A stretch of 25,591 bases of DNA from Planctomycetota bacterium (lineage in GTDB: Bacteria; Planctomycetota; UBA1135; GCA-002686595). The stretch spans positions 1 to 25,591 of the forward strand of contig VGZE01000038.1 in assembly GCA_016872755.1 (NCBI GenBank). The letters run 5' to 3'. Numbering within the stretch: the stretch's first letter is position 1; the number at the start of each line of letters is the position of its first letter. The position numbers and the translations under genes are program-made. The notes beneath the pieces are model-generated. The model saw nothing but the letters and a program-made list of their open reading frames with translations. It did not search any database and was not told where the DNA came from. Below, piece after piece: positions 3,647 through 22,648 of the stretch.

Positions 3647-3660
3647 GGCGTGGACGCGAG

Positions 3661-5169: not shown

Positions 5170-5204
5170 AATTCCATCCCTCACGAACACGTCCGCACGG
5201 AGCC

Positions 5205-7850: not shown

Positions 7851-7957
7851 CCGCTTCCGTGTCGTGCGCCTGGGGCTTTCGCCACGGTGTTTTCGCACGC
7901 ACGTCCAAACCTATCGATCAATCCGATCAACGCACAGGAAGAGGAAAGAGAACCTAC

Positions 7958-8308
7958 ATGGCAACGAAGAAGAATGCGGGCGGCTCGTCGAAGCCGATCA
8001 AGAACGTGCTCAGCAAGTCGGCCCTCGCCAGCCACATCGCGGGCTCGACCGGCATCGCGTCGAAGGACGTGAAGGCCGTCATGGGCGCGCTCGAGGGCGC
8101 GATCTGCGGCTCGATCAACAAGAAGGGCGCGGGCATGTTCGTGCTGCCCGGTCTGCTCAAGATCACCGCGGTCAACGTTCCGGCCAAGCCGAAGCGCACC
8201 GGCATCAACCCGTTCACGGGCCTCGAGCAGACCTTCGCCGCCAAGCCGGCGAGCGTGAAGGTCAAGGTCCGCCCGATGAAGAAGCTGAAGGACGCGGCGA
8301 AGGGCTAG
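7958..8308 (+). CDS. HU/IHF-family nucleoid-associated DNA-binding protein with a Lys/Ala-rich N-terminal extension, 116 aa
   Basis: Strong RBS GAGGAAAGAG 8 nt upstream of ATG 7958. The HU fold signature includes the beta-arm and RTGINPFTG (R-x-G-R-N-P-x-T-G-like) motif: KSALASHIAGSTGIASKDVKAVMGALEGAI...GMFVLPGLLKITAVNVPAKPKRTGINPFTGLEQTFAAKPASVKVKVRP. The first ~20 residues (MATKKNAGGSSKPIKNVLSK) form a basic tail. Confidence 0.85.
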   Translation: MATKKNAGGSSKPIKNVLSKSALASHIAGSTGIASKDVKAVMGALEGAICGSINKKGAGMFVLPGLLKITAVNVPAKPKRTGINPFTGLEQTFAAKPASVKVKVRPMKKLKDAAKG

Positions 8309-8407: not shown

Positions 8408-9400
8408 TCAGTAGCGCGCCGGCGGCTCGGGCTTGTTCGCGACGATCGCCTCGATGCGCGCGAGCACCTCGCCGGACAATTTCGGCAGCGCGTCGAGTGC
8501 CTTCAAATTCTCCGCGAGCTGCTCGCGCTTCGTCGCTCCGAGAATGACCGTGCTGACGCGCGGGTTGAGCGCGCACCATGCGATGGACAGTTGCGCGAGC
8601 GAGCAGCCGAGCTCGCGCGCCAGCACGCCGAGCTCGCGCGCCTTGGCGAGGTTCGCGCGGCCGGCGCTGCTGTCGAGCGCCTCCTCGCGCAGCCACTTGT
8701 ACTCCGGCAGCGCCATGCGCGAACCGGCCGGCACTCCGCCGTCGTACTTGCCGGTCAGCAGACCCGACGCGAGCGGCGACCAGATCGTCGTGCCCAGCCC
8801 GAGCGCGTCGTAGAGCCGCGCGAACTCGCGCTCGACCTTGCGGCGCGCGAACAGGTTGTACTCGGGCTGCTCCATCGTCGGCGGGGCCAGACCCAGGTCG
8901 CGCGCGATCCCGTGGGCCTGCGCGATCTCGTCGGCGCGCCACATGCTCGTGCCCCAGTAGAGGACCTTGCCCTGCGCGACCAGGTCCCCCATCGCGCGCA
9001 CGGTTTCCTCGAGCGGCGTGTCGAGATCGGGCCGGTGGCAGAAGTACAGATCGAGGTACTCGACCTGCAGGCGTTCCAGCGCGTTGTGGCAGCAATCGAC
9101 GACGTGCTTGCGCGACAGTCCCTTCTGGGTCGGCAGCTTGCCGCCCCAGAAGACCTTCGACGACACGCAGTAGCTGTCGCGGCGCCAGCCGAGCGTGCGC
9201 AGCGCGCTGCCCATGATGCGCTCGCTCTCGCCGGCCGCGTAGGCCTCGGCATTGTCGAAGAAATTGACGCCCGCATCGTAGGCCTGCTTCATCAGCTCGG
9301 CGGCGGCGCGCTCGTCGAGTTGCTGCGAGAAGGTGACCCAGGAGCCGAAGGAGAGCAGGGAGAGCTTGAGGCCGCTCTGGCCGAGGCGACGGTACTGCAT
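8408..9400 (-). CDS. Aldo-keto reductase family oxidoreductase (Kv-beta/Tas-like subgroup), 330 aa
   Basis: MQYRRLGQSGLKLSLLSFGSWVTF...GVNFFDNAEAYAAGESERIMG...LDLYFCHRPD...GKVLYWGTSMW...IWSPLASGLLTGKY carries the AKR catalytic tetrad context (D, Y, K, H blocks). It lies 44 nt downstream of the MBOAT-SGNH gene on the same strand. Confidence 0.85.
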   Translation of the reverse strand: MQYRRLGQSGLKLSLLSFGSWVTFSQQLDERAAAELMKQAYDAGVNFFDNAEAYAAGESERIMGSALRTLGWRRDSYCVSSKVFWGGKLPTQKGLSRKHVVDCCHNALERLQVEYLDLYFCHRPDLDTPLEETVRAMGDLVAQGKVLYWGTSMWRADEIAQAHGIARDLGLAPPTMEQPEYNLFARRKVEREFARLYDALGLGTTIWSPLASGLLTGKYDGGVPAGSRMALPEYKWLREEALDSSAGRANLAKARELGVLARELGCSLAQLSIAWCALNPRVSTVILGATKREQLAENLKALDALPKLSGEVLARIEAIVANKPEPPARY

Positions 9401-9444: not shown

Positions 9445-12012
9445 TCAGCGAATCCCGAGCAGCTCGGGCCGCGCCGACAACTCACCGTACAGGCGCGCCG
9501 CGAGCAGTCGATGACCGTTCGCGTTGGCGAGGTGGTACATGTCCGAGATCATGATCTCGGACAGCGCGGGCTCCTGCACACCCTTGCGGATGTCGATGGT
9601 GAGGAAGCCGAGCCGCTCGGCAAGGGAGCGGACCTGGTCGATGCGCATGGTCATGCCGAACTCGACCGTCGCGTCGGCCTCGAACACCGGGACTTCGAGA
9701 TACACGGGGATCGCGCCCATTTCGACGCACGCGCCGTGAAAGCGGCGCAGGGCCCACATCTCGATGTCCTCGAGCACGCCGGCCACCCGGCGACGCACCT
9801 CGCCATCGTCCAGTTCCGGCGTGATGCCGGCCCGCCTGTAGGCGTCCTCGAGCTCGGGCATGAATTCCGGGCGTGTGCGCGCCACGGCGATCAGGTACTT
9901 GATGGTCGACCCGATGTGGTTCGACAGCAGCACGACGTCGGGCTCGTACGCGGCGACCTTGCGTTCGAGCTGGAACATGTGGTGGAACACCGAGTACGCG
10001 GGGACCGAGAAATTCAGGATCTCGTAGCGCAGGCCGTTGACCGAGGACTGCTTCTGGTTCAACTGGAGCTCGACCTGGCGCTCCCAGACCTCCGCGTCGG
10101 AGACCCCCATGCCCATCTCGACGCAAGTGCCGAGCAGCGCGATGCGCCAGGTCCGCGGAGGCTTGCGGAGCTCGTATTCGCGATCGCGCATGCCCGCGCT
10201 ATTGATCGTGTGCTGTTGCCCACCGATCTCGAGCCGCTGCGACGGCGGGAGCTCGAACTCGAGCAGGCCGGGCACGGGGCGCACGATCGCATTGCGCAGG
10301 AACGTCGGCACGTCCTCGGGATCGAACTGCGCGCCCGACCAGGCCCACACCACGCGGCGGTCGCGCTGGATCAGCCGGTCGTAGTACGCGATGCCGTCCG
10401 CATCGGCGTCCTGTCGCGCGCTCGATTCCACGCGCAGCGGAGTCAAGGCCGCCGCGATCGGCGCACCGAGAGCCGCGCTCGCGCGCTCCCAGCCGAGCAG
10501 CAGGAGCAGCGCACAGGCCGCGGCACGCGCCCACGCACCGGCGGATCCGGAGCGCGCCGCGGCGACGGCGCGCGCGAGCTCGGGCCGCAACTGCACCAGC
10601 ACGCCCGCGCCAATGAGCAGCGCGAGCACGCCTGTCAGCACGAACCAGTCCCGCAGCGGGCTCGCGGCGGCCTGCTTCAGCACGCCCGACCACTCGCTCA
10701 GTGATCGGCTCGACCACAGCGACCACAAGAGCGACGTGGTCGCGAACACGCCGAGCACGCGCAGCGCATGGCGCAACGCGGCGCCCAGGCGCGGCGGCGC
10801 CGCCGGCGCGCCCGGCGCCAGCACCGCGGGCCCGGCGGCGCGACGCGCCTCGGCCAGCACGCTCCACAGCGCCAGCAGCGCCGCGACGCCCCAGAACATG
10901 CCGTCCCAGGCCAGCGGCAGCCCGCCCTGCAGGAAGAACCACTGCAGCGCATGCAGCCACCACGTCGCGACGAACACGAGCGCCGTGGACGCCACCAGCG
11001 CGAAGGTCGTCCCCCGCATGCGCAGGCGCATGTAGGCCGGGTAGTAGACGAGCTTCTTCATGAACTCGGTCCAGTAGACGTTCGTGCGCCGCCAGCTGTC
11101 GCTGAAGCTGTGCGCCAGCAGGTACGCGTGGTTCGTCTCGGGGAGCTGGAAGCCGAACAGGTGCAGCATCCCGATCACCAGGTGGAAGTGCCCGGAGATG
11201 CGCAGGTAGAGCAGGTAGCTCGAGCAGACGAACATCAGCACGCCGCCCAGGTCGTGCACGTCGCCGGCGGCCGGGGTCAGGTACGCGTGGACGGCGCGGT
11301 AGGCCAGCAGGTGCAGGATCCCGCGCAGCATCCAGCGCAGCCCGCGCGCGTGGATCTCGCGCGCCGGGGCCGCGTAGTACGTGCGCTGGAAGGTCCGGTA
11401 GTCGACGACCGGAAAGAGCAGGAAGCAGACGTTCGGCAGCAGGAAGAAGTACGCGACGCGCATCCAGATCGACGCGGGCCGCGGCTGCGTGTGCTCGTCG
11501 TACAGGTAGATCGCGCCCCGGAACAGGAACATCGACGCGACCAGCGGTACCACCAGCGACTGCTCCGGCGCGCTGCCTCCGGGAAGGCGCGGCGCCGGGA
11601 TCCAACCGGCGCGCAGCGCGACGAGCAACGCGCCGCATGCGAGCAGGCTCGCGACGCGCCAGCGGATGTGCGCGCGCAGGTTGCACAGCAGGAACAGCAC
11701 TCCACCGAGCACGCCGACCGCCAGTGCATCGACCGGGCCGAGCACGCAGGCGAAGGCCACCGCGCTCAGCGCAACGAAGAACGGCAGCTTCCAGGCACCG
11801 GGCAGCCACGCGTGCACGCAGTAGCCGAGCGCGAGCACCGGCAACACGAGCGGCAGTCCGAGACCGGCCTCCAGTTCCAGCGCCGCGATGGCGCCGCACA
11901 GCATTCCCAGTTGCAGCGCATGCGCGACAAACGCCTTCCAGGCACGGGGTTCTGGTTCCGCATGCACGGGTACCGGCGCTGCATGCGAGGCAAGTGCGAG
12001 CCAACGCCGCAT
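9445..12012 (-). CDS. Fused MBOAT (AlgI/DltB/PatA-like membrane O-acyltransferase) plus C-terminal SGNH (AlgJ/AlgX/PatB/DltD-like) domain protein, 855 aa
   Basis: Start ATG (complement 12010-12012) gives MRRWLALASH. The N-terminal ~470 aa are polytopic and include the MBOAT signature region LPETNHAYLLAHSFSDSWRRTNVYWTEFMKKLVYYPAY (compare AlgI NFNSPY...[21 protein letters not shown]) and a conserved His in ISGHFHLV. The C-terminal ~380 aa have a GDS-like block (IALLGTCVEMGMGVSD) and a DxxH block (SDMYHLANANGHRLLAARLY) of SGNH hydrolases. The upstream 267 codons of the track ORF overlap the methyltransferase gene on the other strand and were trimmed. Confidence 0.75.
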   Translation of the reverse strand: MRRWLALASHAAPVPVHAEPEPRAWKAFVAHALQLGMLCGAIAALELEAGLGLPLVLPVLALGYCVHAWLPGAWKLPFFVALSAVAFACVLGPVDALAVGVLGGVLFLLCNLRAHIRWRVASLLACGALLVALRAGWIPAPRLPGGSAPEQSLVVPLVASMFLFRGAIYLYDEHTQPRPASIWMRVAYFFLLPNVCFLLFPVVDYRTFQRTYYAAPAREIHARGLRWMLRGILHLLAYRAVHAYLTPAAGDVHDLGGVLMFVCSSYLLYLRISGHFHLVIGMLHLFGFQLPETNHAYLLAHSFSDSWRRTNVYWTEFMKKLVYYPAYMRLRMRGTTFALVASTALVFVATWWLHALQWFFLQGGLPLAWDGMFWGVAALLALWSVLAEARRAAGPAVLAPGAPAAPPRLGAALRHALRVLGVFATTSLLWSLWSSRSLSEWSGVLKQAAASPLRDWFVLTGVLALLIGAGVLVQLRPELARAVAAARSGSAGAWARAAACALLLLLGWERASAALGAPIAAALTPLRVESSARQDADADGIAYYDRLIQRDRRVVWAWSGAQFDPEDVPTFLRNAIVRPVPGLLEFELPPSQRLEIGGQQHTINSAGMRDREYELRKPPRTWRIALLGTCVEMGMGVSDAEVWERQVELQLNQKQSSVNGLRYEILNFSVPAYSVFHHMFQLERKVAAYEPDVVLLSNHIGSTIKYLIAVARTRPEFMPELEDAYRRAGITPELDDGEVRRRVAGVLEDIEMWALRRFHGACVEMGAIPVYLEVPVFEADATVEFGMTMRIDQVRSLAERLGFLTIDIRKGVQEPALSEIMISDMYHLANANGHRLLAARLYGELSARPELLGIR

Positions 12013-12045
12013 GCAGGCGAAGATACCATTCCGGATCCTCGCCCC

Positions 12046-12825
12046 ATGGAACACGGCCACTACTCGGCGCTGGCCGGCGCCTATGCGGCGCACCGCGCCG
12101 GCTATGCCGACGCGGTCGCCGGGCGCGTGCTCGCCGCGGCCTGCGCCGCGGCGAACAAACCCGCGCAGGAGCTCGAGGTCGCCGACGTGGGCGCAGGCAC
12201 CGGAATCTGGTCGCGCGTGCTGGCACGCGCAGGCTGCCGGGTCCGCGCGGTCGAGCCGAACGACGCGATGCGCGAGGCCGGCGCTTCGGATCCCGCCAAC
12301 GGCTCGATTCGCTGGCACGGCGGTCGGGCCGAGGCCACCGAGCTCGCGGCCCGTTCCTGCGATCTCGTCACGATGGCATCGGCGTTCCACTGGACCGAGT
12401 TCGAGGCGGCGCTGGCGGAATTCGCGCGCGTGCTGCGCCCGCACGGCGTCTTCGCGGCACTGTGGAACACGCGCATCGTCGACGAGTCGCCGCTGCTCGC
12501 CGAGATCGAGGCGGAACTGCGCCGGCGCGTACCGCACTACGTGCCGCGCTCGTCGGGGCGCTCCGCCTTCTGCGACAGCCTGTCGGAGCGGCTGCGCGCC
12601 TGCGGCCGCTTCGCGCTCGTCGAGACCTGCGAGGGACGCCACGTCGAGGCGCAGAGTCGCGAGCGCTACCTCGGCATCTGGCGCTCGGTCAACGACGTGC
12701 GCGTGCAGGCCGGCGAACAGACCTTCGCCGACTTCCTCGAGTGGCTCGCGTGGCGCCTGCGCGATGTACCGCGGATCGAGGCCCCGTACCTGACGCGCTG
12801 CTGGATCGCGCACCTGTCGACCTAG
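12046..12825 (+). CDS. Class I SAM-dependent methyltransferase (Methyltransf_11/25-like), 259 aa
   Basis: Motif I LEVADVGAGTGIWSRVLA. An acidic residue after beta2 (RVRAVEPNDAM). Post-I DLVTMASAFHW and RVLRPHGVFAA. Divergent from the MBOAT-SGNH gene, with a 33-bp gap. Confidence 0.8.
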   Translation: MEHGHYSALAGAYAAHRAGYADAVAGRVLAAACAAANKPAQELEVADVGAGTGIWSRVLARAGCRVRAVEPNDAMREAGASDPANGSIRWHGGRAEATELAARSCDLVTMASAFHWTEFEAALAEFARVLRPHGVFAALWNTRIVDESPLLAEIEAELRRRVPHYVPRSSGRSAFCDSLSERLRACGRFALVETCEGRHVEAQSRERYLGIWRSVNDVRVQAGEQTFADFLEWLAWRLRDVPRIEAPYLTRCWIAHLST

Positions 12826-12899: not shown

Positions 12900-13469
12900 A
12901 TGGATCCTGCCCACCGGACCGGCGCGCCGACCCAGCAAGGCACCGTGTACTGGCTCACAGGCCTCGCCGGGGTCGGGAAGTCGACGCTGGCCCGGCTGCT
13001 CGCCGCGCGCCTGCGCGCCGCGGGTCGCGCCGTCGTGCTGCTGGACGGCGACGAGCTGCGCGCGCGGCTGTTTCCGGAGGCCGGCTACGCGCGCGAAGAA
13101 CGTCTGATGCTGGCGCGGCGTTACGCCGGCCTGTGCGGCTTGGTGGCAGCGCAGGGTCCGGACGTCGTGTGCGCGACGATCTCGCTGTTTCCGGAGATCT
13201 GGAACGAGAATCGCCGGCTCCTGCCCGCCTATCGCGAGGTGCTGGTGCGCGCGCCGGCCGAGGAGCGCCGCCGGCGCCGGCCCGAGTTGCACGCCGGCAC
13301 GGCCGACTCGCGCGGACCGGTGGTGGGCGCGGAGCTGGCGGCGCCCGAACCGCACGAACCGCACGCCATCCTCGACAATGACGGCCGCCGATCGCCCGAG
13401 CAACTGATCGACGAGCTGTTGGCCGCATTCGCCGCGCGCGGCCCAGCCTGCGGCATGGGGCGGCCGTGA
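12900..13469 (+). CDS. cysC: Adenylyl-sulfate (APS) kinase-like P-loop kinase, 189 aa
   Basis: GTVYWLTGLAGVGKSTLARLL (Walker A in the APS kinase context GxxxWxTGLSGSGKST), followed by LLDGDELR (compare LDGDNVR), ISLFPEIWNENRRL, then YREVLVRAPAEERRRRRP and C-terminal EPHEPHAILDNDGRRSPEQLIDELL. Co-operonic with a sulfotransferase. Confidence 0.8.
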   Translation: MDPAHRTGAPTQQGTVYWLTGLAGVGKSTLARLLAARLRAAGRAVVLLDGDELRARLFPEAGYAREERLMLARRYAGLCGLVAAQGPDVVCATISLFPEIWNENRRLLPAYREVLVRAPAEERRRRRPELHAGTADSRGPVVGAELAAPEPHEPHAILDNDGRRSPEQLIDELLAAFAARGPACGMGRP

Positions 13470-15811
13470 GCCTCGCGCTCGAATTCCCGACCTGGACCAA
13501 GGCCGAGGCGCTCGAGCAGCTGGCGCCGCGGCTCGCCTGCGCGCGCGTGCTGCCGCAGGTTCGCACGGACGTCCGCGGCTGGCGCGCCGATCCCGACGCC
13601 GTGCTGGCGCTCGTCCGCGCGCGCGGCTGGCTCGACCAGCCGCTGATCGTGCGCAGTAGCGCGCGCGGCGAGGATCAGGCCGGTGCCTCGCTCGCGGGCC
13701 GTTTCCCGTCGATTCGCGACTGCCGCGGCGAGGCGGCGCTGCGCTCGGCCATCGAGCAGGTCGCCGCCGCCTTGCCGGCCGACGACGACCAGCTCTTCGT
13801 CCAACCCTGCCTGTGCGATGTGCGCTCCAGCGGCGTCGTGTTCACGCGCGATCCCGGCAGCGGCGGCCACTATGCGATCGTCGCCTACGACCAGCGCTCC
13901 GGACGCACCGACCTGATCACGTCCGGGCGCGCGGTCGAGCCGCGCACGTACCTGCACCACGAGAGCGCTCCGCCCGCGGCCGATCCCGAGCTGGTGCGCG
14001 TGCTCGAGCTGTCGCGCGAGTTGCAGCGCTTGCTCGAGTGCGCGGCGCTGGACATCGAGTATGCGTGTGTCGACGACGGCCTGCCCTACCTGCTGCAGGT
14101 GCGCGCGCTGGCCGCCGCGGCGGGCGCGCCAGCCGAGGCCGACGAAGAGGCCCGCGCGCTGCGCCGCGTGCAGCGGCGCGTCGAAGAACTCGGGGGCCCG
14201 CATCCGTACCTGCTCGGCGGTGCGCCGATCTTCGGCGCGATGCCGGATTGGAATCCGGCCGAGGTGCTGGGCGCGCGCCCGCGCCCGCTCGCGTTGTCCT
14301 TGTACCGCGAGCTGGTCACCGACGGGATCTGGGCCTACCAGCGGCGCAACTACGGCTATCGCGACTTGCGCAGCTTCCCGCTCGTGCATTCCTTTGCCGG
14401 GCTGCCCTACGTCGACGTGCGCGTGAGTTTCCACTCCTTCGTGCCGGCGGACCTCGGTGACGAGCTCGGCGGCCGGCTGGTCGACGAGTACGCGCACCGT
14501 CTGCTGGCCCGGCCGCCCGACCACGACAAGGTCGAGTTCTCGATCGTGGACTCGTGCGCGACGTTGGACCTGGAGCAGCGCCTGGCGCGCCTGCCGGCCG
14601 CGCGCTTCTCCCCCGCCGATCGCGCGCGCATCGCGGATTCGCTGCGCACGCTGACCAATCGCATCACGTCCGGTCCGCAGTGCTTGTTCCGGCTCGACCT
14701 CGACAAGATCGCGGCGCTCGAGCGCCGTCAGCAGGAATTCGCCGGCCGCGCCGCTGGGCTCGATCCGCTGTCGCGCGCGTACTGGCGCCTGGAGGACTGC
14801 AAGCGCTACGGAACGCTGCCCTTCGCCGGCATCGCGCGCGCGGCGTTCATCGCGCTGCAGATCCTCGATTCGCTGGTCGGCACGGGCCTGCTCGAGCGCG
14901 CGGAGCGCGAGCTCGTGCTGCACTCGTCCGACAGCGTGCGCGCCCGGATGGACCGCGACCTCGCGATGCTGCCGCGCGCGCAGTTCCTGGCGCGCTACGG
15001 CCACCTGCGGCCCGGCACCTACGAGGTCACGACGCCGCGCTACGACGAAGCGCCCGATGCGTATTTCGGTGCGCCGGGCGGCGGCGCCGCGCGTGCCGAG
15101 CCGCCGCACCGGCGTTTCGAACTCGACGCGCCGCGCAAGCGCCGCCTCGATGCCGAACTCGCCGCGCAGGGCCTCGCGCACGACGCGCGCTCGCTGTTCG
15201 AGTTCTTCTACGATGCGATCGAGGGGCGTGAGCACGCCAAGTTCGTCTTCACGCGCAGCCTCAGCGACGCGCTGGTCGATCTGGTCGAGGTGGCGCGCAA
15301 CGCCGGCTTCTCGCGCGACGACCTCAGCTACGCTGAATTCGATGCGCTGCGCGGCCTGCATTCGAGCTGCGACGATCCGCGAGCGGTGCTGGAGCGCTCG
15401 ATAGAGGCCGGTCGCGCGCGTCACGCCGTCACGCGCCGCCTGACGCTGCCCGCGCTGATCACCGCTCCGTCCGACGTGCTGGCCTTCCACCTGTCGCCGA
15501 GCGAGCCCAACTACGTCGGGCAGGCGCGCGTGGAGGGCCCGGCGCTCGCCGCAGCCTGTGCCGGGGAGAGCCTGCGCGGCGCCATCGTGCTGCTGCCGAA
15601 CGCCGACCCCGGACACGATTGGATCTTCGCGCACGGCGTGGCCGGCTTCGTCACGCAGTACGGCGGTTACAACTCGCACATGGCGGTGCGCGCCCTCGAA
15701 CTCGGCGTCCCCGCGGTGATCGGCGCCGGCGAGGAGCTGTATCGACGCTGGTCGCTGGCGCGACGGCTGCGCCTGGACTGCTTGAACCGCAAGGTCGAGG
15801 TGCTGGCATGA
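13466..15811 (+). CDS. PEP-utilizing enzyme, PEP synthase / pyruvate-phosphate dikinase-like phosphotransferase, 781 aa
   Basis: GTG start overlaps the cysC stop (GTGA). N-terminal PPDK_N-like nucleotide-binding region (VRSSARGEDQAGASLAGRFPSI compares with SSATAEDLPDASFAGQ). C-terminal phosphohistidine mobile domain (GGYNSHMAVRALELGVPAVIGAGE compares with GGRTSHAAIIARELGIPAVVG). There is no PEP mutase signature. Confidence 0.8.
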   Translation: MSLALEFPTWTKAEALEQLAPRLACARVLPQVRTDVRGWRADPDAVLALVRARGWLDQPLIVRSSARGEDQAGASLAGRFPSIRDCRGEAALRSAIEQVAAALPADDDQLFVQPCLCDVRSSGVVFTRDPGSGGHYAIVAYDQRSGRTDLITSGRAVEPRTYLHHESAPPAADPELVRVLELSRELQRLLECAALDIEYACVDDGLPYLLQVRALAAAAGAPAEADEEARALRRVQRRVEELGGPHPYLLGGAPIFGAMPDWNPAEVLGARPRPLALSLYRELVTDGIWAYQRRNYGYRDLRSFPLVHSFAGLPYVDVRVSFHSFVPADLGDELGGRLVDEYAHRLLARPPDHDKVEFSIVDSCATLDLEQRLARLPAARFSPADRARIADSLRTLTNRITSGPQCLFRLDLDKIAALERRQQEFAGRAAGLDPLSRAYWRLEDCKRYGTLPFAGIARAAFIALQILDSLVGTGLLERAERELVLHSSDSVRARMDRDLAMLPRAQFLARYGHLRPGTYEVTTPRYDEAPDAYFGAPGGGAARAEPPHRRFELDAPRKRRLDAELAAQGLAHDARSLFEFFYDAIEGREHAKFVFTRSLSDALVDLVEVARNAGFSRDDLSYAEFDALRGLHSSCDDPRAVLERSIEAGRARHAVTRRLTLPALITAPSDVLAFHLSPSEPNYVGQARVEGPALAAACAGESLRGAIVLLPNADPGHDWIFAHGVAGFVTQYGGYNSHMAVRALELGVPAVIGAGEELYRRWSLARRLRLDCLNRKVEVLA

Positions 15812-16425
15812 AGACCGTGCTCGTCTCGCAGCGCGTCGAGATCGCTGCTCCGAGCGGCGAGCGCCGCGACGCGCTGGCCCAGGACTGGCACGCTTTCCTG
15901 GCGCGCTGCGGATTGGCGCCGATCCTGGTCCCCAACCACGCGGGCAACGCGCGGGCCCTGCTCGGAGCGCCGCACTGCGGCGTGCTGCTGACCGGCGGCA
16001 ACGACCTCGCCAGCCTGGGCGGCGACGCGCCCGAGCGCGACGAGGTCGAGCGCTTGCTGGTCGAGCACGCACTCGCGGCGCGCCTGCCGGTGCTGGGCGT
16101 GTGCCGAGGAATGCAGTTCCTGGTCGATCGCTGCGGCGGCGCGCTGCAGCCCGTGGACGGTCACGTCACGCAGCAGCAGTGGATCGAAGTGGACGGCCGG
16201 CGCGAGCTGGTCAACAGCTACCATCGCTACGGCTGTCGCGCGGTGCCGCCCGAGCTCGAGGTCTGGGCGCGCGCGGACGACGGAGTGGTCGAGGCGGTGC
16301 GCCACCGCGCGCTGCCGCTGGTCGGGATCATGTGGCACCCCGAGCGCTTCGCGTCGCCGCGCGCAGCGGACGTCGAGCTGTTCCGCCGCGTGTTCGGCGC
16401 GCGCGGTCCGGAGGCGGCCCCATGA
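15808..16425 (+). CDS. Class I glutamine amidotransferase-like protein (peptidase C26 / PuuD gamma-glutamyl hydrolase family), 205 aa
   Basis: ATG overlaps the upstream stop (ATGA). Nucleophile elbow LPVLGVCRGMQFL. His/Glu block GIMWHPE. Size and motifs fit a stand-alone GATase-1/C26 hydrolase. Confidence 0.75.
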   Translation: MKTVLVSQRVEIAAPSGERRDALAQDWHAFLARCGLAPILVPNHAGNARALLGAPHCGVLLTGGNDLASLGGDAPERDEVERLLVEHALAARLPVLGVCRGMQFLVDRCGGALQPVDGHVTQQQWIEVDGRRELVNSYHRYGCRAVPPELEVWARADDGVVEAVRHRALPLVGIMWHPERFASPRAADVELFRRVFGARGPEAAP

Positions 16426-17156
16426 GGGCGCTGATTCTCGCCGCCGGCCGTGGCAGCCGGATGGGCGCGGCCACCGAGCACGGCCCCAAGGGCATGCTCG
16501 AAGTGCTGGGCCGACCGCTGCTGGCCTGGCAAATCGACGCGCTGCGCGCGGCGGGCGCGAGCGAGATCGCGATCGTGCGCGGCTACCGCGGCGAAGCCCT
16601 GCGCTTCGACGTGCGCTACTACGACAACCCGCGCTGGGAGAGCACGAACATGGTCGCGTCGCTCGGCTGCGCCGCCGAGTGGCTGCGCGCAGGCCCCTGC
16701 CTGGTTTCGTACGCGGATCTGGTCTATCCGCCCGAGGCGCCGCGCCGACTGGCCGAGACCGCCGCGCCGATCGCGCTCTTGTACGACGCGCACTGGCGGG
16801 AATTGTGGTCGCAGCGCTTCGCCGATCCGCTCGACGACGCGGAAGCGCTGCGCCTGGACGCGCGCGGGCGTGTGCTCGAGATCGGAGGCCGCCCGCGCGA
16901 CTACGCGCGCATCGAGGGACAGTACATGGGCCTGTTCCAGCTCACGCCCGAGGGCGCCGAACGGCTGTTCGCGCGCAGCGCCGAACTCGAGCCGGCCGCG
17001 CGCGACCGGCTCGACATGACGACGCTCTTCGCGCGCTGCGTGCGCGCGGGCGACGAGCTGCACGCCGTGCGCTACGACGGCTGGTGGTGCGAGATCGACC
17101 AGCCCTCCGACCTCGCGCTGGCCGAGCGGATCGCGGCCCAGGGGACGGCCCGTTGA
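16422..17156 (+). CDS. MobA-like nucleotidyltransferase (NTP_transf_3; sugar/phospho-alcohol nucleotidylyltransferase, LicC/CofC-like), 244 aa
   Basis: ATG overlaps the upstream stop (ATGA). N-terminal MRALILAAGRGSRMG...KGMLEVLGRPLLAWQIDAL is the G-x-G-x-R NTP-binding loop of MobA/LicC/GlmU-type nucleotidyltransferases. Confidence 0.75.
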   Translation: MRALILAAGRGSRMGAATEHGPKGMLEVLGRPLLAWQIDALRAAGASEIAIVRGYRGEALRFDVRYYDNPRWESTNMVASLGCAAEWLRAGPCLVSYADLVYPPEAPRRLAETAAPIALLYDAHWRELWSQRFADPLDDAEALRLDARGRVLEIGGRPRDYARIEGQYMGLFQLTPEGAERLFARSAELEPAARDRLDMTTLFARCVRAGDELHAVRYDGWWCEIDQPSDLALAERIAAQGTAR

Positions 17157-18004
17157 GACCCGAGAATCGCTCGCGCCTCGGACCACACGACGTCGTGCTG
17201 GCCGCGCACCCGGGCTCGGGTTCGAGCTGGATCGGCACGCTGCTCGTCGAACTCGGCCTGTTCTACGCATCGGGCCACGAGGAGCGGCTGCTCGACTCGA
17301 GCAGCCAGCGCAGCGAGCCCTGGATCGAGGCGGGAACGGCTCCGGCAGCCGGGCTCGCGCGCCCGCGCCTGGCGCGCGCGGAACGCGCCCGGCACCTGCC
17401 GTCGCTGCACGAGCGCGACGCGCGCCACCCGAGCTTTCGCGAGCCGGTCCGCGTCGTGTTGAGCAACGACAGCGCGCTGGGCTGGAAGTGCGAGCGGCCG
17501 GTCGTGCTGCTGGTGCGCGACGGCCGCGATGCGCTCCTGTCGCTGTACCAGCACCTGGTGGGGTTCAGCGGTCTGCAGGCGTCCTTCGCCGAGTACCTGG
17601 CCGGCGGCGGCGGCGCCTGGCCGCCGCCCGCGCACAGTTGGGCGGTCGCCAACCTGAGCTGGCTCGACGCGACGCCGCGCGAGCGCCTGCTCGTGCTGAC
17701 CTTCGAAAGCTGTCGGGCCGATCCGCTCGCGCGCTTTCGCGAGCTGACCGGGTTCCTCGGCGCGCCGCGCAGCGACGCGGAACTCGAGCGCGCGATCGCG
17801 GCGAGCAGCTACGACGCGATGCGCCAGGCGGAGGAGCGCGCCCTCGGCCCCGAGGCCGCCGCCGCGAACGCTCCGCGCTTCATGCGCCGGGGCCGCATCG
17901 GCGAATGGCGCGAGGTCTACGACGCCGCGTTGCTGACGCGCTTTTCGGGCCTGCCGCGCCGCGCGCTCGAGCGCTTCGGCTACCCGACCGCCGAGATCCC
18001 CTGA
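17153..18004 (+). CDS. PAPS-dependent sulfotransferase, 283 aa
   Basis: TTG start overlaps the upstream stop (TTGA); a GTG about 45 nt downstream is an alternative. 5'-PSB loop HPGSGSSWIGTLL (compare PKSGTTW). 3'-PB motif LVRDGRDALLSLYQH (compare RNPRDVxVSxYHF). C-terminal FESCRADPLARFRELTGFLG (compare YEDLKxDPxxEIxKIxxFLG). Confidence 0.75.
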   Translation: MRPENRSRLGPHDVVLAAHPGSGSSWIGTLLVELGLFYASGHEERLLDSSSQRSEPWIEAGTAPAAGLARPRLARAERARHLPSLHERDARHPSFREPVRVVLSNDSALGWKCERPVVLLVRDGRDALLSLYQHLVGFSGLQASFAEYLAGGGGAWPPPAHSWAVANLSWLDATPRERLLVLTFESCRADPLARFRELTGFLGAPRSDAELERAIAASSYDAMRQAEERALGPEAAAANAPRFMRRGRIGEWREVYDAALLTRFSGLPRRALERFGYPTAEIP

Positions 18005-19941
18005 GTCGCGCCGGCGAACGCCTCGACGACGGTGCAGCGCGGCTCGATCAACGCGAGCTCCTGCACCGATTGCGTGCAGATCCAGGTGTGCAGGAAGGCG
18101 GTCTGCTTCGGCATCAGGAACACCTGTCCGGTGCGGTGATCGACCCGGATCAGGTGATCGCCGGGCGCGAGCAGGTCGGGCTCGAGCGGCGCCCCGATGC
18201 GCAGCGCGTGCACGAGTCGCGGGAAATCGTACGGCGAGCGCAGCTTGAGCTCGCGGTGGCGCAGTTCGACCAGCGTGAGCGCTTCGAGCGGCACGCCCAG
18301 CTCGGTCTTGGTCTGCATGAACAGATAGGGTCGGCAGGCGAGGTCGTACTCGACCGCGGCGCGCAGCAGCGCACCGTGCGGACCCGCAAACCACTCGGGG
18401 CGCGTTGCCACGTACGCGACCAGCAACCGATCGAACTCGGCGCGCTGCGCGTGCATCGCCGCGTCGGCCAGCTCGCCGCGCCACATGTACTTGACCATGT
18501 CCTCGAAGCACTCGAGCTGATTGCGCCAGCGCTCCGCGAAAGGCCCGCTCGCCTGCGTGTCCATCCAGCGCGAGAACTGGTCCACCTCGTCGCGGAAGCG
18601 CGCGATGCCGAGCCGGTCGAGCAGCTGCAGCGTCGCATACAGTCCGCGACAATCGTTCAGCAGGAACAGTGCGATCGCGAAGCGCAATCCGGCGATGTAG
18701 TCAGGGAACGGAACCTCGCGCGTGGAGACGACGATCTCCCCGCCCGTCGCCGGGTCGTCCTCGGGCAGCAGCGTGACGCCGTATTCCTCGGTGTGCTCGC
18801 GATAGCCGGTGTTGTTCAGCCACATCAGCGGGTAGACCAGGAATCCCTGAGCGCCCCTGCGCAGCAGGTCGTCGATGCCGTCCTTGAAGCTGTCGAGCGT
18901 CTCGCCGGGCATCGGCCACAGGAGCTCGACCATCGACGCCCGACGGTGCTCGTTCAGGTGGCGCTGGATGCGCGTGTAGGGTTCGCGCTCGAGTCCCGTG
19001 CGGCGCGCACGTTCCAGCACTTCCTTGCTCATCGACTGCAGCGAGAACATGTGCCGCGAGAGCATGCCGGCGTCGGCGACGAGATTCGAGATCTGCTCTA
19101 CGCGCTCGGGCTTCACCTTCGAGCTGTTGAACAGGATGCGCTTGAGATTGCCGTACTTGCGCGAGACCGCGACGATCTGCTCGGCGATCTCGAGGTCGCG
19201 CGGCAGGATGCCGAAGTTCGCGTCGGTCAGCGACATCACGCGGATGCCGCGCTTGCCGATCCACTCGAGCTCCTCGCGCAGCCGCCCCAGGTCCTGCTGG
19301 TAGATCTTCTGTCCGATGGCGCCGCCCCAGTAGCAGAACTCGCACGCGAATGGGCAGCCCCGATTGGTCTCGAACAGCGCGATCTCGATGTGGCCCACCT
19401 CGTCGAAGACGCCGCTCAGCCACGGCGACGGCAGCTCGGACAGGTCCTGCACGCGCGGCGGCCCCGGCGTCGTGACGAACTGGCCGTCGCGCGCGAAGGT
19501 CAGCCCGCCCACGCGCTGCCAATCGGGCCTCGACTCGCTGAGTTCGAGCAGCACGTCGCGGAACGGCCGCTCGCCCTCCGAGTTGCACACGGCCACGTTC
19601 TCCCAGCCGGTCTGCACGAAACGCGGAGCGACGTTCATCACTTCGACGCCGCCGAGCAGGAAGCGCGTGCGCGGCAGCAACCCGCGCAACGTCGGGAGCA
19701 GCCGCCGCACGATGCCGGCGTTCCACGTGTACACGCTGAACGCGACGAGATCGGGGTTGCGCGCCACCAGATCGCGGATCACGTACGAGGCCTTGACCGT
19801 GTTTTGCTGCCGGTACAGCTCGACGTTCCAGGTCGCGCGCACTTGTGGGTCCGCCATCGCGAACGCCTTCAAGTAGCCGCCGACGAGCGGCGACAGTCGG
19901 GCGAGCCCGTCGAGGTGCACGATGACCGCGTTGCGCTTCAT
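17980..19941 (-). CDS. B12-binding (class B) radical SAM enzyme, paralog 2, 653 aa
   Basis: Start ATG (complement 19939-19941) gives MKRNAVIVHLDG, preceded by GAAGG. B12-binding N-terminus. CxxxCxxC in RGCPFACEFCYWG. Long C-terminal extension. Same architecture as the 5740-7299 gene. The upstream 89 codons of the track ORF were trimmed. Confidence 0.85.
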   Translation of the reverse strand: MKRNAVIVHLDGLARLSPLVGGYLKAFAMADPQVRATWNVELYRQQNTVKASYVIRDLVARNPDLVAFSVYTWNAGIVRRLLPTLRGLLPRTRFLLGGVEVMNVAPRFVQTGWENVAVCNSEGERPFRDVLLELSESRPDWQRVGGLTFARDGQFVTTPGPPRVQDLSELPSPWLSGVFDEVGHIEIALFETNRGCPFACEFCYWGGAIGQKIYQQDLGRLREELEWIGKRGIRVMSLTDANFGILPRDLEIAEQIVAVSRKYGNLKRILFNSSKVKPERVEQISNLVADAGMLSRHMFSLQSMSKEVLERARRTGLEREPYTRIQRHLNEHRRASMVELLWPMPGETLDSFKDGIDDLLRRGAQGFLVYPLMWLNNTGYREHTEEYGVTLLPEDDPATGGEIVVSTREVPFPDYIAGLRFAIALFLLNDCRGLYATLQLLDRLGIARFRDEVDQFSRWMDTQASGPFAERWRNQLECFEDMVKYMWRGELADAAMHAQRAEFDRLLVAYVATRPEWFAGPHGALLRAAVEYDLACRPYLFMQTKTELGVPLEALTLVELRHRELKLRSPYDFPRLVHALRIGAPLEPDLLAPGDHLIRVDHRTGQVFLMPKQTAFLHTWICTQSVQELALIEPRCTVVEAFAGATQGISAVG

Positions 19942-20071
19942 GATCCGGCCTTCAGGTTCCGCGACGCCTCTCGCCGGCAGCGGCGAGCAGCCAGCCGAGC
20001 GGGGCAGCGCGACACTGTCTACTCTACCGCCGAATGCTAGGATCGGCGCGCGGGCTGCAGCCGGCCCGGTC

Positions 20072-20329
20072 ATGGAATCGCCCGAGATCGCCGCTCGCGT
20101 GCGCCAGATCCTGCTCGATGGGGTCTTGCGCGGCAGCAACCCCGCCCTGCTGCAGGACTCGACACCGCTGCTTTCCGGCGGCGTGCTCGACTCGGTGCGC
20201 ATGGTCACGCTGATCTCCGACCTCGAGCGCGCCTTCGGCGTCAGCTTCGAGGCCTTCGAAATGAGCGTCGACTACCTCGACTCGATCGCGATCATCGCGC
20301 GCACGATCCGCGACAAGAAGACGGGGTGA
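20072..20329 (+). CDS. Acyl carrier protein (phosphopantetheine-binding), 85 aa
   Basis: Phosphopantetheine attachment context GGVLDSVRMVTLISDLERAFGV (DSx Ser with a flanking helix II). Size fits an ACP. Directly upstream (4-nt gap) of the acyl-AMP ligase. Divergent from radical SAM paralog 2 across a 130-bp region. Confidence 0.75.
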   Translation: MESPEIAARVRQILLDGVLRGSNPALLQDSTPLLSGGVLDSVRMVTLISDLERAFGVSFEAFEMSVDYLDSIAIIARTIRDKKTG

Positions 20330-20333
20330 TCCG

Positions 20334-22055
20334 TTGGCCGAGACGCTGCAAGGCCGGCTGCGCGCGCGACTCGACGAGGCTCCCGCCGCACGCGCACTGG
20401 CCTGCATCGACGCGCGTGGGGCCGCGATCTGGTGGACGCGCGCAGAGCTGCATGCGGAGGCCGCGCGCTGCGCCGCGCGGATGGGCGAACTGGGACTGCG
20501 CGCGGGCGACGTCGTCGTGCTCGTGTGCGTCGATCCGCGCGAGGCCGCGCTCGGGGCCCTCGGGGCCTGGCGGGCCGGGGCGATCCCGCTGCTGGTCGCG
20601 CCCCCGACGATCCAGGGCCTGAACTCGAGCCTCGCTACGATCCTGCGCCACGCGTTGGCGCGCACCGAGGCGCGCCTGCTGGTGCTGACGCGCGCGGCCG
20701 CGCCGCGTGCCGACGAGCTCGCGGCCGCGCTGCCCGGACTGCGCATCGAGCGCGGCTTCGAAACCCTGCTCGCGCCCGCGCAGCCGGCCATCTCCGTCGA
20801 GCCGGGACTGATCGAACCACGCGACGCCGGCACCGCCGCGGCGCTGCAGCTCAGCTCCGGCACGACGCGCCTGCCGCGCATCGCGCGCTGGAGCCACGCG
20901 CGCCTGCTCTGCGCGCTCGACGGCATGGCGCAGGGAATGAACCTCGCGAGCGACGACGTGTACGCGAATTGGACGCCGCTCTACCACGACATGGGACTGG
21001 TCAACAACCTGCTCACGTGCCTGGTGCGCGGCATCCCGCTCGCGCTCCTGTCTCCGCTAGACGTCGTGCGCAGCCCGTCGCTGTGGTTGCGCGCGCTCGA
21101 ATCGACCGGCGCGACCCAGACCTGGTCGCCGAACTTCGGGTACGCGCTGGCGGCCGAGCGCTGCCGCGACGAGGAGCTCGCGGGCCTCGATCTCTCGCGC
21201 GTGCGCGGTTTCTGGAACGCCGCCGAGCGCGTGCACGTCTCGACCTTCGAGCGCTTCCTGGCGCGCTTCGCGCGCCACGGGGTGCGGCGGGACGCCTGCC
21301 GCACCAACTTCGGCTGCGTCGAGACGATCGGCGGCGCGACCTTCAGCGCGCGCTCGGCCGCGCTCGCCACCGAGCGACTGGACCTCGACGTGCTGCGCGA
21401 GCAGCGCGTCGCGCGCGCCGCTGACCCCACGACGCGGCGCGCGCAGACCTACGTCGGCTGCGGGCGCGTGCACCCGCTGCTCGAGTTGGCGGTCTTCGAT
21501 CCCGCGGGACGCGCGCTGCCCGACGGCCATGTCGGGACGCTCGGGTTCCGTGGCCGGGCGCGCTTCGACGGCTACCTCGGCGACGAGGAGGCCGCGCACA
21601 ACGTGCTGCGCGACGAGTGGGTGCTGCCCGGCGACGAAGGCTACCTGCGCGACGGCGAGCTGTACTGGACCGGGCGGCGCGACGAGCGCATCAACCTGCA
21701 GGGCAAGAAGCTCGATCCGAGCGAGCTCGAGCCGGTGCTGCTGGCCGTCGAGGGCCTGCGCAAGGGCTGTTTCTGCGCCTTCGGCGCCGAGGACGAGACG
21801 CGCGGCACGCAGGTGCTCGTCGTCGCCAGCGAGGTTGAGCCGGAGGCCGAGGCGGACCTGGCCGGGCTCGCGGCGCGCGCGCGCGCGGCGCTGTCGCGCG
21901 AGCTCGGGCTGGCGGTCGAGGAATTGCTGCTCGTGCGCAAGGGCACGCTGGCGAAGACGTCCAGCGGCAAGCGGCGGCATCTCCATTTCCGCGACCTCTT
22001 CGCGCGCGGCGAGCTGGAGGCGCTGCACGTGTCGCGCGCGGGGAGCCTTGGATAG
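20334..22055 (+). CDS. Fatty acyl-AMP ligase (FAAL) / AMP-dependent synthetase-ligase, 573 aa
   Basis: TTG start 4 nt after the ACP stop. AMP-binding motif A3 LQLSSGTTRLPRIA (compare SSGTTGxPKG). A5-like block NWTPLYHDMGL. A8-like PGDEGYLRDGELYWTGRRDERINLQGKKLDPSELE. The N-terminus and ACP pairing are typical of FAAL-type loaders rather than CoA ligases. Confidence 0.8.
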   Translation: MAETLQGRLRARLDEAPAARALACIDARGAAIWWTRAELHAEAARCAARMGELGLRAGDVVVLVCVDPREAALGALGAWRAGAIPLLVAPPTIQGLNSSLATILRHALARTEARLLVLTRAAAPRADELAAALPGLRIERGFETLLAPAQPAISVEPGLIEPRDAGTAAALQLSSGTTRLPRIARWSHARLLCALDGMAQGMNLASDDVYANWTPLYHDMGLVNNLLTCLVRGIPLALLSPLDVVRSPSLWLRALESTGATQTWSPNFGYALAAERCRDEELAGLDLSRVRGFWNAAERVHVSTFERFLARFARHGVRRDACRTNFGCVETIGGATFSARSAALATERLDLDVLREQRVARAADPTTRRAQTYVGCGRVHPLLELAVFDPAGRALPDGHVGTLGFRGRARFDGYLGDEEAAHNVLRDEWVLPGDEGYLRDGELYWTGRRDERINLQGKKLDPSELEPVLLAVEGLRKGCFCAFGAEDETRGTQVLVVASEVEPEAEADLAGLAARARAALSRELGLAVEELLLVRKGTLAKTSSGKRRHLHFRDLFARGELEALHVSRAGSLG

Positions 22056-22099: not shown

Positions 22100-22648
22100 A
22101 TGCTCCGAGCGAGGAGGATTCCACTGGCCGACTCGAGAGATGCGCATCCCTGGGCTTCACGTCTGGCTGCCGAACACAGCTGGCTGCGCCGCAGGGCTCA
22201 CCGACTGATCGGCCGCGGACTGCGTCGCAGCGCCGATTCGACGGACCTCGCGCACGCGACGCTCGCCAAGGCGCTCGAGAAACCGCCTTCGAGGACGCCG
22301 ACGAATCGCCCCGAGCTGCGCGCCTGGTTGGATCGCGTGCTGTCACGCTTGGCGGCGCGCCTGGGAGGCAAGCCGGGTCCGGAGGCGGTGGCGTCGAGCG
22401 CGCTCGAGCGCCTGCCACGCACGGCGGATGGCGTCAGCGAGCGACGGCGCGAGATCTCGGAGGAACTCCTGAGATCGCTGGACGCGCTGACGCCGCGCCA
22501 GCGGCTCGTGATCCAACTGCGCCTGTGGGAGAAGCTCTCGTTCGCGCAGGTTGCGGTCCGGCTCGGGACGAGCGAGGGCAATGCGCGCGTGCTGTTCCAC
22601 CGGGCGATCGAGGCGCTGCAGCGACTCGAGGGTCGCAATGGGCGCTGA
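22100..22648 (+). CDS. ECF-type RNA polymerase sigma factor (sigma-70 family group 4), 182 aa
   Basis: GGAG 5-6 nt upstream of the ATG. Region 2-like ADSTDLAHATLAKALEK and ELRAWLDRVLSRLAARLG. Region 4 HTH LTPRQRLVIQLRLWEKLSFAQVAVRLGTSEGNARVLFHRAIEALQRL. Confidence 0.65.
   Translation: MLRARRIPLADSRDAHPWASRLAAEHSWLRRRAHRLIGRGLRRSADSTDLAHATLAKALEKPPSRTPTNRPELRAWLDRVLSRLAARLGGKPGPEAVASSALERLPRTADGVSERRREISEELLRSLDALTPRQRLVIQLRLWEKLSFAQVAVRLGTSEGNARVLFHRAIEALQRLEGRNGR

Follow-up and report, generated by a model that had tools for sequence, protein, structure and literature searches.

The window analyzed here, the whole 25,591-nucleotide stretch of contig VGZE01000038.1 from a Planctomycetota bacterium, carries three co-directional genes on the + strand between positions 13466 and 17156. 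They were resolved by third-position GC and start-codon mapping, overlap by 4 nt at each junction (GTGA/ATGA), and are predicted to encode homologues of the enzymes with which Campylobacter jejuni begins the synthesis of an activated phosphoramidate donor for its capsule. The unit extends past this interval, with genes for a methyltransferase and an adenosine 5'-phosphosulfate (APS)-kinase-like protein before it and a Sulfotransfer_1 gene after it. The genes of the unit are listed below, with families from Pfam and NCBIfam scans and lengths in amino acids (aa).

12046..12825, + strand: S-adenosylmethionine (SAM)-dependent methyltransferase, Methyltransf_11; start uncertain, 11920-12046
12900..13469, + strand: APS-kinase-like P-loop kinase (probable Cj1415 type), 189 aa; start uncertain, ATG at 12900 or GTG at 12741/12750
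13466..15811, + strand: putative glutamine kinase homologue (Cj1418-type), 781 aa, GTG start
15808..16425, + strand: putative gamma-glutamyl-CDP-amidate hydrolase homologue (Cj1417-type), 205 aa, ATG start
16422..17156, + strand: putative phosphoglutamine cytidylyltransferase homologue (Cj1416-type), 244 aa, ATG start
17153..18004, + strand: sulfotransferase-fold protein, 283 aa, with a TTG start that overlaps the stop of the preceding gene

Because the window has about 70% G+C, raw lists of open reading frames (ORFs) are noisy; related loci carry this trio in an unchanged order, which marks the three as genuine genes rather than ORFs arising by chance. Conservation was followed in a neighbourhood sample of 86 loci, comprising the window, five metagenome loci, and 80 GTDB species representatives, the latter being the best 80 of at least 566 relatives; C. 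jejuni is not among these 80. Beside the glutamine kinase gene, the APS-kinase-like gene and the nucleotidyltransferase gene were each found in 83 loci, the C26 hydrolase gene in 79, and a Methyltransf_11 gene in 72, and several of the missing cases come from contigs that are short or truncated. Such co-location, in 72-83 of the 86 loci, defines the unit as a five-gene cassette. We are fairly confident that positions 13466-17156 encode the first three phosphoramidate-donor enzymes of the C. jejuni capsule pathway, and that the two upstream genes make the five-gene cassette complete.

Cassette enzymes and the C. jejuni phosphoramidate pathway

In C. jejuni, the capsule route leads from glutamine, ATP, and cytidine triphosphate (CTP) to 3'-phospho-cytidine diphosphate (CDP)-amidate (PMC11800397), and its first step is the N-phosphorylation of the glutamine amide by glutamine kinase, EC 2.7.3.13 (PMC6429109). 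The 781-aa protein of the window matched the NCBIfam model NF004508/PRK05849 at 820.9 bits (cutoff 501), with residues 6-780 aligned to positions 8-788 of the 789 in the profile. The title of this model is 'hypothetical protein', and its equation with the Cj1418 family rests on the names given by the Joint Genome Institute (JGI) to close homologues; the 781-aa protein is 52-71% identical, over 99-100% of its length, to proteins that JGI names 'glutamine kinase'. The domain order, with an N-terminal ATP-grasp and a C-terminal phosphohistidine swivel domain, is Rph-like. The candidate phosphohistidine is His738 in the motif GGYNSHMAV, which was found in 82 of the 86 loci; His738, G733, G734, N736, and S737 were invariant in an alignment of 13 diverse homologues (A1). 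Judged from these sequence features, the protein is an L-glutamine kinase homologue of the Cj1418 type.

A different explanation would be that this protein is a phosphoenolpyruvate (PEP) synthase, pyruvate phosphate dikinase (PPDK), or Rph-type phosphotransferase lying next to a housekeeping or choline-phosphate cytidylyltransferase, their adjacency having no pathway meaning. Pfam shows only the generic PPDK_N (36 bits, residues 57-103) and PEP-utilizers mobile (49 bits, residues 705-759) domains, both above cutoffs, a precomputed Rph_4th domain match is listed for the protein, and some homologues carry the NCBI names 'phosphoenolpyruvate synthase' and 'phosphocholine cytidylyltransferase family protein'. 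The window protein does share with these enzymes an ATP-grasp and a swivelling phosphohistidine domain, C-terminal as in Rph, but the similarity is confined to the histidine domain of ~55 residues and an ATP-grasp segment of ~47 residues, and PEP synthases in the PDB align with the histidine domain only. PEP-utilizers_C was absent in the Pfam scan, leaving the protein without the pyruvate/PEP-binding barrel, and its predicted acceptor is instead the amide nitrogen of an amino acid. Models for PEP synthase, PPDK, and Rph scored 19-41 bits against cutoffs of 456-1063 (TIGR01418 for PEP synthase, 34.8 bits against 739.75; PPDK models, 19-32 bits), compared with 821 bits for PRK05849. The ppsA orthology that had been named as a possible pitfall was likewise not found, with no PEP synthase model scoring above 41 bits (cutoffs 600-1060). 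In addition, the three genes are translationally coupled and co-occur in more than ten phyla, and no choline kinase or LicD-type gene was seen in the window. Domains, model scores, PDB matches, and linkage have thus largely refuted this explanation, which we regard as very improbable. An assignment to RedH/PigC was also considered and was rejected on model scores.

The 205-aa protein was recognized by Pfam as Peptidase_C26 (89.5 bits) and GATase (54.5 bits), both above cutoffs. Its best NCBIfam model was that of gamma-glutamyl-CDP-amidate hydrolase (NF045546), which aligned over profile positions 4-181 of 198 and scored 109 bits, about double the score of the next family, PuuD (58 bits). A mate in the same 90% cluster carries the JGI name 'N5-(cytidine 5'-diphosphoramidyl)-L-glutamine hydrolase'. 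The triad of class I amidotransferases is present as Cys99 (GVCRG) and His177 with Glu179 (WHPE), and the Cys and the His/Glu motifs were seen in 64 and 73, respectively, of 79 cassette homologues. These results identify the protein as a predicted gamma-glutamyl-CDP-amidate hydrolase homologue (Cj1417-type) with a class I glutamine-amidotransferase fold.

The 244-aa protein contains the MobA-like NTP transferase domain NTP_transf_3 (77 bits, above cutoff), and in the NCBIfam scan no curated model aligned beyond its N-terminal 60 residues. Two homologues with 53-56% identity (P0161 and P0234) are named 'L-glutamine-phosphate cytidylyltransferase' by JGI. The AlphaFold model, with a mean predicted local distance difference test (pLDDT) score of 96.6, had its best PDB fold match in PntC, a phosphonate-specific cytidylyltransferase (template modelling (TM) score 0.82, 21% identity), and LicC was matched by sequence at 4e-8. 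LicC and PntC, the nearest solved fold, catalyze the same type of reaction between CTP and a small phospho(no)-compound; at ~21% identity, the genomic partners suggest phosphoglutamine as the substrate of the window enzyme, not phosphocholine or aminoethylphosphonate. The protein is thus best described, from sequence and fold model, as a putative LicC/PntC-like phosphoglutamine cytidylyltransferase homologue (Cj1416-type). The identities IspD, GlmU, and MobA/CofC were rejected on hidden Markov model scores, which removes the housekeeping nucleotidyltransferases from consideration. A PDB search gave no close relative of the glutamine kinase, the hydrolase, or the nucleotidyltransferase.

The last 4 nt of the APS-kinase-like gene, which include its stop codon, are shared with the start of the glutamine kinase gene. 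The encoded protein matched Pfam APS_kinase at 72.8 bits and passed the NCBIfam subfamily model PRK05541 (129.5 bits, cutoff 127), and it failed the canonical apsK model TIGR00455 (71.5 bits, cutoff 138.7). It is probably a cytidine diphosphoramidate 3'-kinase of the Cj1415 type. Most of the 120 best glutamine kinase homologues have an APS_kinase domain fused at the N-terminus in proteins of ~970 aa (e.g., L002:536-3505, L003:10001-12931, and L087:12818-15709), whereas the window has separate, overlapping genes. Some of these fusions are labelled simply 'adenylyl-sulfate kinase' by NCBI.

The methyltransferase (Pfam Methyltransf_11, 63.5 bits) was present in every annotated neighbourhood, and the C. 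jejuni locus for O-methyl phosphoramidate (MeOPN) includes a 257-aa putative capsule methyltransferase (PMC13317227). We consider the window protein a candidate O-methyltransferase for O-methyl phosphoramidate, and its place in the cassette hints at O-methylation of the final group, as in MeOPN.

These assignments can be arranged into a six-step scheme, in which the first four steps are drawn from homology and gene linkage, with chemistry established in C. jejuni, and the last two are conjectural. The glutamine kinase homologue would carry out the ATP-dependent N-phosphorylation of the L-glutamine amide, and the LicC/PntC-like nucleotidyltransferase would add cytidine monophosphate from CTP to yield CDP-L-glutamine. 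The C26/GATase-fold hydrolase (Cys99-His177-Glu179) would remove glutamate to leave cytidine diphosphoramidate, and the APS-kinase-like enzyme would add a 3'-phosphate, giving 3'-phospho-CDP-amidate, a structural analogue of 3'-phosphoadenosine 5'-phosphosulfate (PAPS). The sulfotransferase-fold protein might then move the phosphoramidate onto an acceptor hydroxyl with release of 3',5'-CDP, and the cassette methyltransferase might O-methylate the product to O-methyl phosphoramidate.

Three points count against the pathway assignment. The 205-aa protein, at 109 bits, does not reach the NF045546 cutoff of 250. The names given to homologues of the 244-aa protein by NCBI, and mostly also by JGI, are the generic 'phosphocholine cytidylyltransferase family' and 'choline kinase'. 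Finally, the equation with Cj1415-Cj1418 is an indirect one, made through curated models, the names given by pipelines, and the linkage of the genes.

Compared with the MeOPN genes of C. jejuni (Cj1418, Cj1416, Cj1417, and Cj1415), the window cassette has the same four enzyme families clustered with a small methyltransferase and the same predicted product, 3'-phospho-CDP-amidate. In contrast, it lies in a member of the Planctomycetota, outside any capsule (kps) locus, and is followed by the 283-aa sulfotransferase-fold protein, with no counterpart of the ~600-aa transferases Cj1421/Cj1422 apparent from size and annotation history. The sequence-only reading had given the three genes of 13466-17156 the families that Pfam and gene mapping now confirm, and had proposed that a phosphohistidine kinase, a nucleotidyltransferase, and a coupled amidotransferase-like protein make a nucleoside diphosphate (NDP)-activated group for later transfer. 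That chemical logic is sound, and NDP activation holds; the group itself would be a phosphoramidate (P-N) and not the phospho-ester head group that was envisaged. Nor is the pathway unrecognized, as had been stated, because it is the known MeOPN-type route, by which annotation pipelines already name close homologues. The three genes being explained by a known pathway, the finding as first written is not new biology. The core genes belong to a pathway already described, and the new part is the broad spread of the cassette together with the transferase candidate.

The sulfotransferase-fold protein and the transfer step

The 283-aa protein matched Pfam Sulfotransfer_1 at 60.8 bits (cutoff 22). 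Its structure model (pLDDT 90.4) had its top PDB matches in SULT2B1, SULT1E1, and Teg12 at a TM score of about 0.6, and the best matches are sulfotransferases bound to PAPS or to 3'-phosphoadenosine 5'-phosphate (PAP). The 3'-phosphate motif VRDGRDxxLS (RxxxDxxxS) is intact in the family, with R122, D126, and S130 invariant. The 5'-phosphosulfate-binding loop of PAPS sulfotransferases has the consensus P-K/R-S-G-T/S-T, with a basic Lys/Arg. The window protein and each of the 27 close homologues in alignment A2 have another residue there and read HPGSG(S/T/A)xW. Only P0280, an outlier with 30% identity, has the loop PRSGSTW; the contig that carries it is 2.7 kb long, shows an unrelated membrane protein next to it, and says nothing about linkage to the cassette.

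The family comprises only 29 clusters in a collection of 5.8 billion sequences, and all those whose context is known adjoin cassette genes (the window, L001, L002, L006, L007, the P0013 locus, and L086-L089), the one exception being the distant outlier P0280. Two more subfamilies flank the cassette elsewhere, one of the Sulfotransfer_1 type in alphaproteobacterial loci and one of the Sulfotransfer_3 type in 17 loci. With the three subfamilies taken together, a sulfotransferase-family neighbour was found in 25 distinct loci; these counts are derived from domain coordinates and still miss L004/L042. Near and far flanks having been sampled equally, 25 of 27 sulfotransferase matches lay no more than 4 kb from a cassette gene (binomial 3.5e-6, without phylogenetic correction).

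3'-phospho-CDP-amidate, a 3'-phosphorylated nucleotide with a transferable monoanionic group, has the architecture of PAPS. The window also resembles the PAPS pathway (CysC, SULT/Teg-type enzymes, and CysQ) in its enzymes, namely a 3'-kinase of the APS kinase fold and a sulfotransferase fold with the 3'-phosphate motif, and both systems follow the logic of a 3'-phosphorylated nucleotide bearing a transferable anionic group, with CysQ in some cassette loci. Unlike in the PAPS pathway, the kinase fails the canonical model, ATP sulfurylase is missing, the basic loop residue is lost, and the predicted donor combines cytidine with phosphoramidate, not adenosine with sulfate. Based on these features, we propose that the sulfotransferase-fold proteins beside the cassette, the 283-aa protein among them, would transfer phosphoramidate rather than sulfate, with sulfation from cellular PAPS as a less probable reading.

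The sequence-only reading had expected the activated group to be sulfated after its transfer. In that case, an NDP-activated phospho-head group would be made, an APS kinase would produce PAPS, and the sulfotransferase would sulfate the product, resulting in two separate decorations of one acceptor. The genuine sulfotransferase fold with its intact 3'-phosphonucleotide motif, the placement of the upstream kinase within the APS kinase superfamily, and a Sulfatase-family gene nearby in one related cluster (L089) would agree with this. Nevertheless, the APS-kinase-like gene occurs in 83 of the 86 loci, most of which lack a recognizable sulfotransferase, and in most homologues it forms a fusion with the glutamine kinase; its product falls short of the canonical APS kinase model, as described above. 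No ATP sulfurylase or other sulfate-activation gene was found in the window or in any annotated neighbourhood, and neither the window protein nor its 27 close homologues have a basic residue at the expected place in the 5'-phosphosulfate loop. Moreover, were the 283-aa protein a sulfotransferase, the cluster would have no candidate phosphoramidate transferase. Because the kinase belongs to the cassette and ATP sulfurylase is absent from the window and the annotated neighbourhoods, a sulfation module is improbable, and the expectation of sulfation most likely arose from a misreading of the flanking genes, the APS-kinase-like gene being present regardless of a sulfotransferase.

Phosphoramidate transfer by the 283-aa protein also meets objections. 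To our knowledge, no sulfotransferase-fold enzyme uses a cytidine donor, and the donor specificity of such enzymes is not readable from sequence. The neighbourhood counts are not phylogenetically independent, and about 35 of the 86 loci have neither a sulfotransferase-family gene nor a member of comp0, a family described below. The known MeOPN transferases of C. jejuni are unrelated proteins of 592-603 aa (PMC13317227). Those two, Cj1421 and Cj1422, were first annotated as glycosyltransferases (PMC13317227, PMC9561416), and no gene of the conserved cluster corresponds to them in a comparison by size and annotation history only. Even in C. jejuni, the transfer step has not been reconstituted and is biochemically undefined (PMC12409886), and Campylobacter species that have cj1416-cj1418 without a recognizable transferase have been noted (PMC3907429).

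Two other families were observed near the cassette. A CysQ-type 3'(2'),5'-bisphosphate nucleotidase (comp12) lies beside it in five loci (L021, L023, L053, L064, and L075; e.g., L075:12827-13675, + strand) and matched TIGR01331 at 229.6 bits (cutoff 228.8). By analogy with the removal of PAP, this enzyme could clear the by-product 3',5'-CDP. The commonest cassette neighbour is comp0, an unannotated family of ~240 aa that was seen in 30 loci, most of them from Acidobacteriota (L003, L008, L010-L014, and 23 more; e.g., L003:15253-15972, - strand), with a median of 74 bp between it and the cassette. Its invariant motifs are G-x-G-R and RHP-x-DS, and no Pfam or NCBIfam model matched it. Comparison with sulfotransferases by hhalign gave a probability of 5-15%, and sulfotransferases were at the top of a PDB profile search with E values of 0.6-0.9, which is a hint, not a demonstration, that comp0 may have a very divergent sulfotransferase-like fold.

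Conserved companion genes and the possible acceptor

Four more genes always accompany the cassette and its sulfotransferase-fold gene within this clade, as follows.

9445..11904, - strand: polytopic membrane protein, ~820 aa, with a C-terminal SGNH-like domain; start uncertain, 11847-12012
17980..20073, - strand: B12-binding radical SAM enzyme of the KedN5-like C-methyltransferase family; start uncertain, 19941-20208
20072..20329, + strand: small carrier-protein-like ORF, 85 aa, with a GVLDS motif
20334..22055, + strand: fatty-acyl-AMP-ligase-like adenylating enzyme, Pfam AMP-binding, 139 bits

The radical SAM enzyme has the Pfam domains B12-binding and Radical_SAM, matched the NCBIfam KedN5 family at 303 bits (below the cutoff of 700), and has counterparts in the corresponding place in L001, L002, L007, and the P0013 locus. 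The carrier-like ORF scored 19.2 bits for PP-binding, just under the cutoff of 20.8, and is homologous to ORFs of 87-92 aa at the same position in L001, L002, L086, L087, and L089; PP-binding is also weak in the P0013 locus. The adenylating enzyme had its best NCBIfam matches in fatty acyl-AMP ligase models (263 bits, below cutoffs), and its gene comes after the carrier ORF in all related clusters. The membrane protein is divergently transcribed from the operon, has at least seven transmembrane-like segments, and is 47% identical (686 bits) to an 851-aa protein at the same position in L001, with counterparts of ~790-850 aa in L086, L087, and L089. It matched no Pfam family, and the NCBIfam SGNH match is weak (E = 0.003). 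By eye, its core (SGHFH...LFGFQLPETN...SWRR) resembles that of a membrane-bound O-acyltransferase (MBOAT), though the canonical WRRWH histidine is missing, and Pfam does not support this identity. The arrangement of membrane protein, carrier, and ligase recalls systems of the Dlt/Alg type, which lead from an acyl carrier to an MBOAT and an SGNH protein.

Judging from these conserved neighbours, the phosphoramidate may be accepted by an acyl compound bound to a carrier or by a polymer of the cell envelope. We tentatively propose, as a possible reading, that outside Campylobacter sulfotransferase-fold phosphoramidate transferases have switched from PAPS to 3'-phospho-CDP-amidate, that the 283-aa protein belongs to a small family devoted to this function, and that here the acceptor is a carrier- or envelope-bound acyl compound, in view of the adenylating enzyme, the carrier protein, the B12 radical SAM enzyme, and the membrane protein. 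If this is true, (O-methyl) phosphoramidate decoration would be a widespread bacterial modification with an unrecognized transferase class. The sulfotransferase-fold genes that recur beside a pathway with a PAPS-like product provide a concrete and testable candidate for the transfer step.

The same companions could be read in another way, with the cassette product as proposed, the transferase being an unrecognized protein such as the membrane protein or one encoded elsewhere in the genome, and the 283-aa protein using PAPS on the carrier/adenylating branch. The sulfotransferase gene of L086 and of L089 forms one operon with the carrier and ligase genes, which it overlaps or abuts, at a distance of several kb from the cassette genes, and many cassette loci have no sulfotransferase-family neighbour. 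CurM/olefin synthases are known to contain sulfotransferase domains whose beta-hydroxyacyl substrates are bound to a carrier. On the other hand, apart from the outlier P0280, no member of the 283-aa family was seen without cassette genes nearby, and the two other subfamilies adjoin the cassette without carrier or adenylating genes (L004/L042, L084, and comp1). We consider this arrangement rather unlikely, though deserving of attention.

Two related loci show further features. In the rearranged cassette of L086, a FadB-like 3-hydroxyacyl-CoA dehydrogenase/enoyl-CoA hydratase (L086:15295-17334, + strand) lies between the APS-kinase-like and C26 genes, which may hint at a hydroxyacyl acceptor. 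In L089, a phosphonate module and the Sulfatase-family gene (L089:5547-7972 and 485-1786, both - strand) lie directly beside the sulfotransferase-carrier-ligase operon. The module consists of a PEP mutase fused to a cytidylyltransferase-like domain, a thiamine pyrophosphate-dependent decarboxylase, and an iron-containing alcohol dehydrogenase, so that P-C and P-N chemistry are encoded side by side.

Distribution of the cassette and other genes of the window

Relatives of the glutamine kinase were found in at least 566 GTDB species representatives from more than ten phyla, including Planctomycetota, Acidobacteriota, Alpha- and Gammaproteobacteria, Nitrospinota, Gemmatimonadota, Verrucomicrobiota, Elusimicrobiota, Bacillota, and others, and non-photosynthetic cyanobacterial relatives were also among the carriers. 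Cultured carriers include Pseudomonas taiwanensis, Azospirillum sp. TSO22-1, Chitinibacter tainanensis, and Chitinilyticum litopenaei. Among the matches listed, the closest genome was a Planctomycetota metagenome-assembled genome (MAG) with 71% identity, and C26 and nucleotidyltransferase proteins identical to those of the window have been deposited from a Planctomycetes MAG.

The glutamine kinase has been called "C. jejuni-specific" (PMC9561416), and MeOPN has been described as known only from Campylobacter (PMC6429109). The cassette was noted in archaeal elements in the Borg preprint (10.1101/2024.11.05.622173), and a phosphoramide group is known in the lipooligosaccharide of Xanthomonas campestris (PMC8042644). 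Our literature search found no paper on the broad distribution of the cassette. The occurrence of the complete five-gene cassette in at least 566 species indicates that P-N decorations of surfaces or lipids are probably common and chemically overlooked. Annotation pipelines will mislabel such loci as sulfur metabolism, with names such as adenylyl-sulfate kinase, sulfotransferase, and PEP synthase.

In seven loci of the Pseudomonas, Chitinibacter, and Chitinilyticum types (L052, L053, L058, L066, L068, L075, and L085), the cassette lies among sugar-modifying genes, with a DegT aminotransferase, a hexapeptide acetyltransferase, a formyltransferase, and GT2/GT61 glycosyltransferases as neighbours, and no recognizable sulfotransferase-family neighbour was found in these loci. 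This context suggests glycan acceptors and another type of transferase there.

Other genes noted in the window are listed below.

1898-3676, - strand: SPFH/Band 7 protein
4339-5169, + strand: VTT/DedA-family membrane protein
5061-5585, + strand: ribosomal silencing factor RsfS
5740-7299, + strand: second B12-binding radical SAM enzyme, upstream of the cluster
7954-8265, - strand: short ORF with high third-position GC, upstream of the cluster
8408-9400, - strand: aldo/keto reductase, upstream of the cluster
22100-22648, + strand: extracytoplasmic function (ECF)-type sigma-70 factor
22551-24968, + strand: Ser/Thr protein kinase, after the sigma gene

The second radical SAM enzyme, the short ORF, and the aldo/keto reductase are not conserved in the neighbourhoods of L001 and L002 and are therefore probably outside the unit. 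The sigma factor and the Ser/Thr kinase are not conserved beside the cluster in relatives; the longest ORF of the kinase overlaps the sigma gene by ~100 nt, and its true start is thus probably later. The SPFH/Band 7, VTT/DedA, and RsfS genes, which are of the housekeeping type and occupy the left part of the window, are consistent with a chromosomal, and not a mobile, context.

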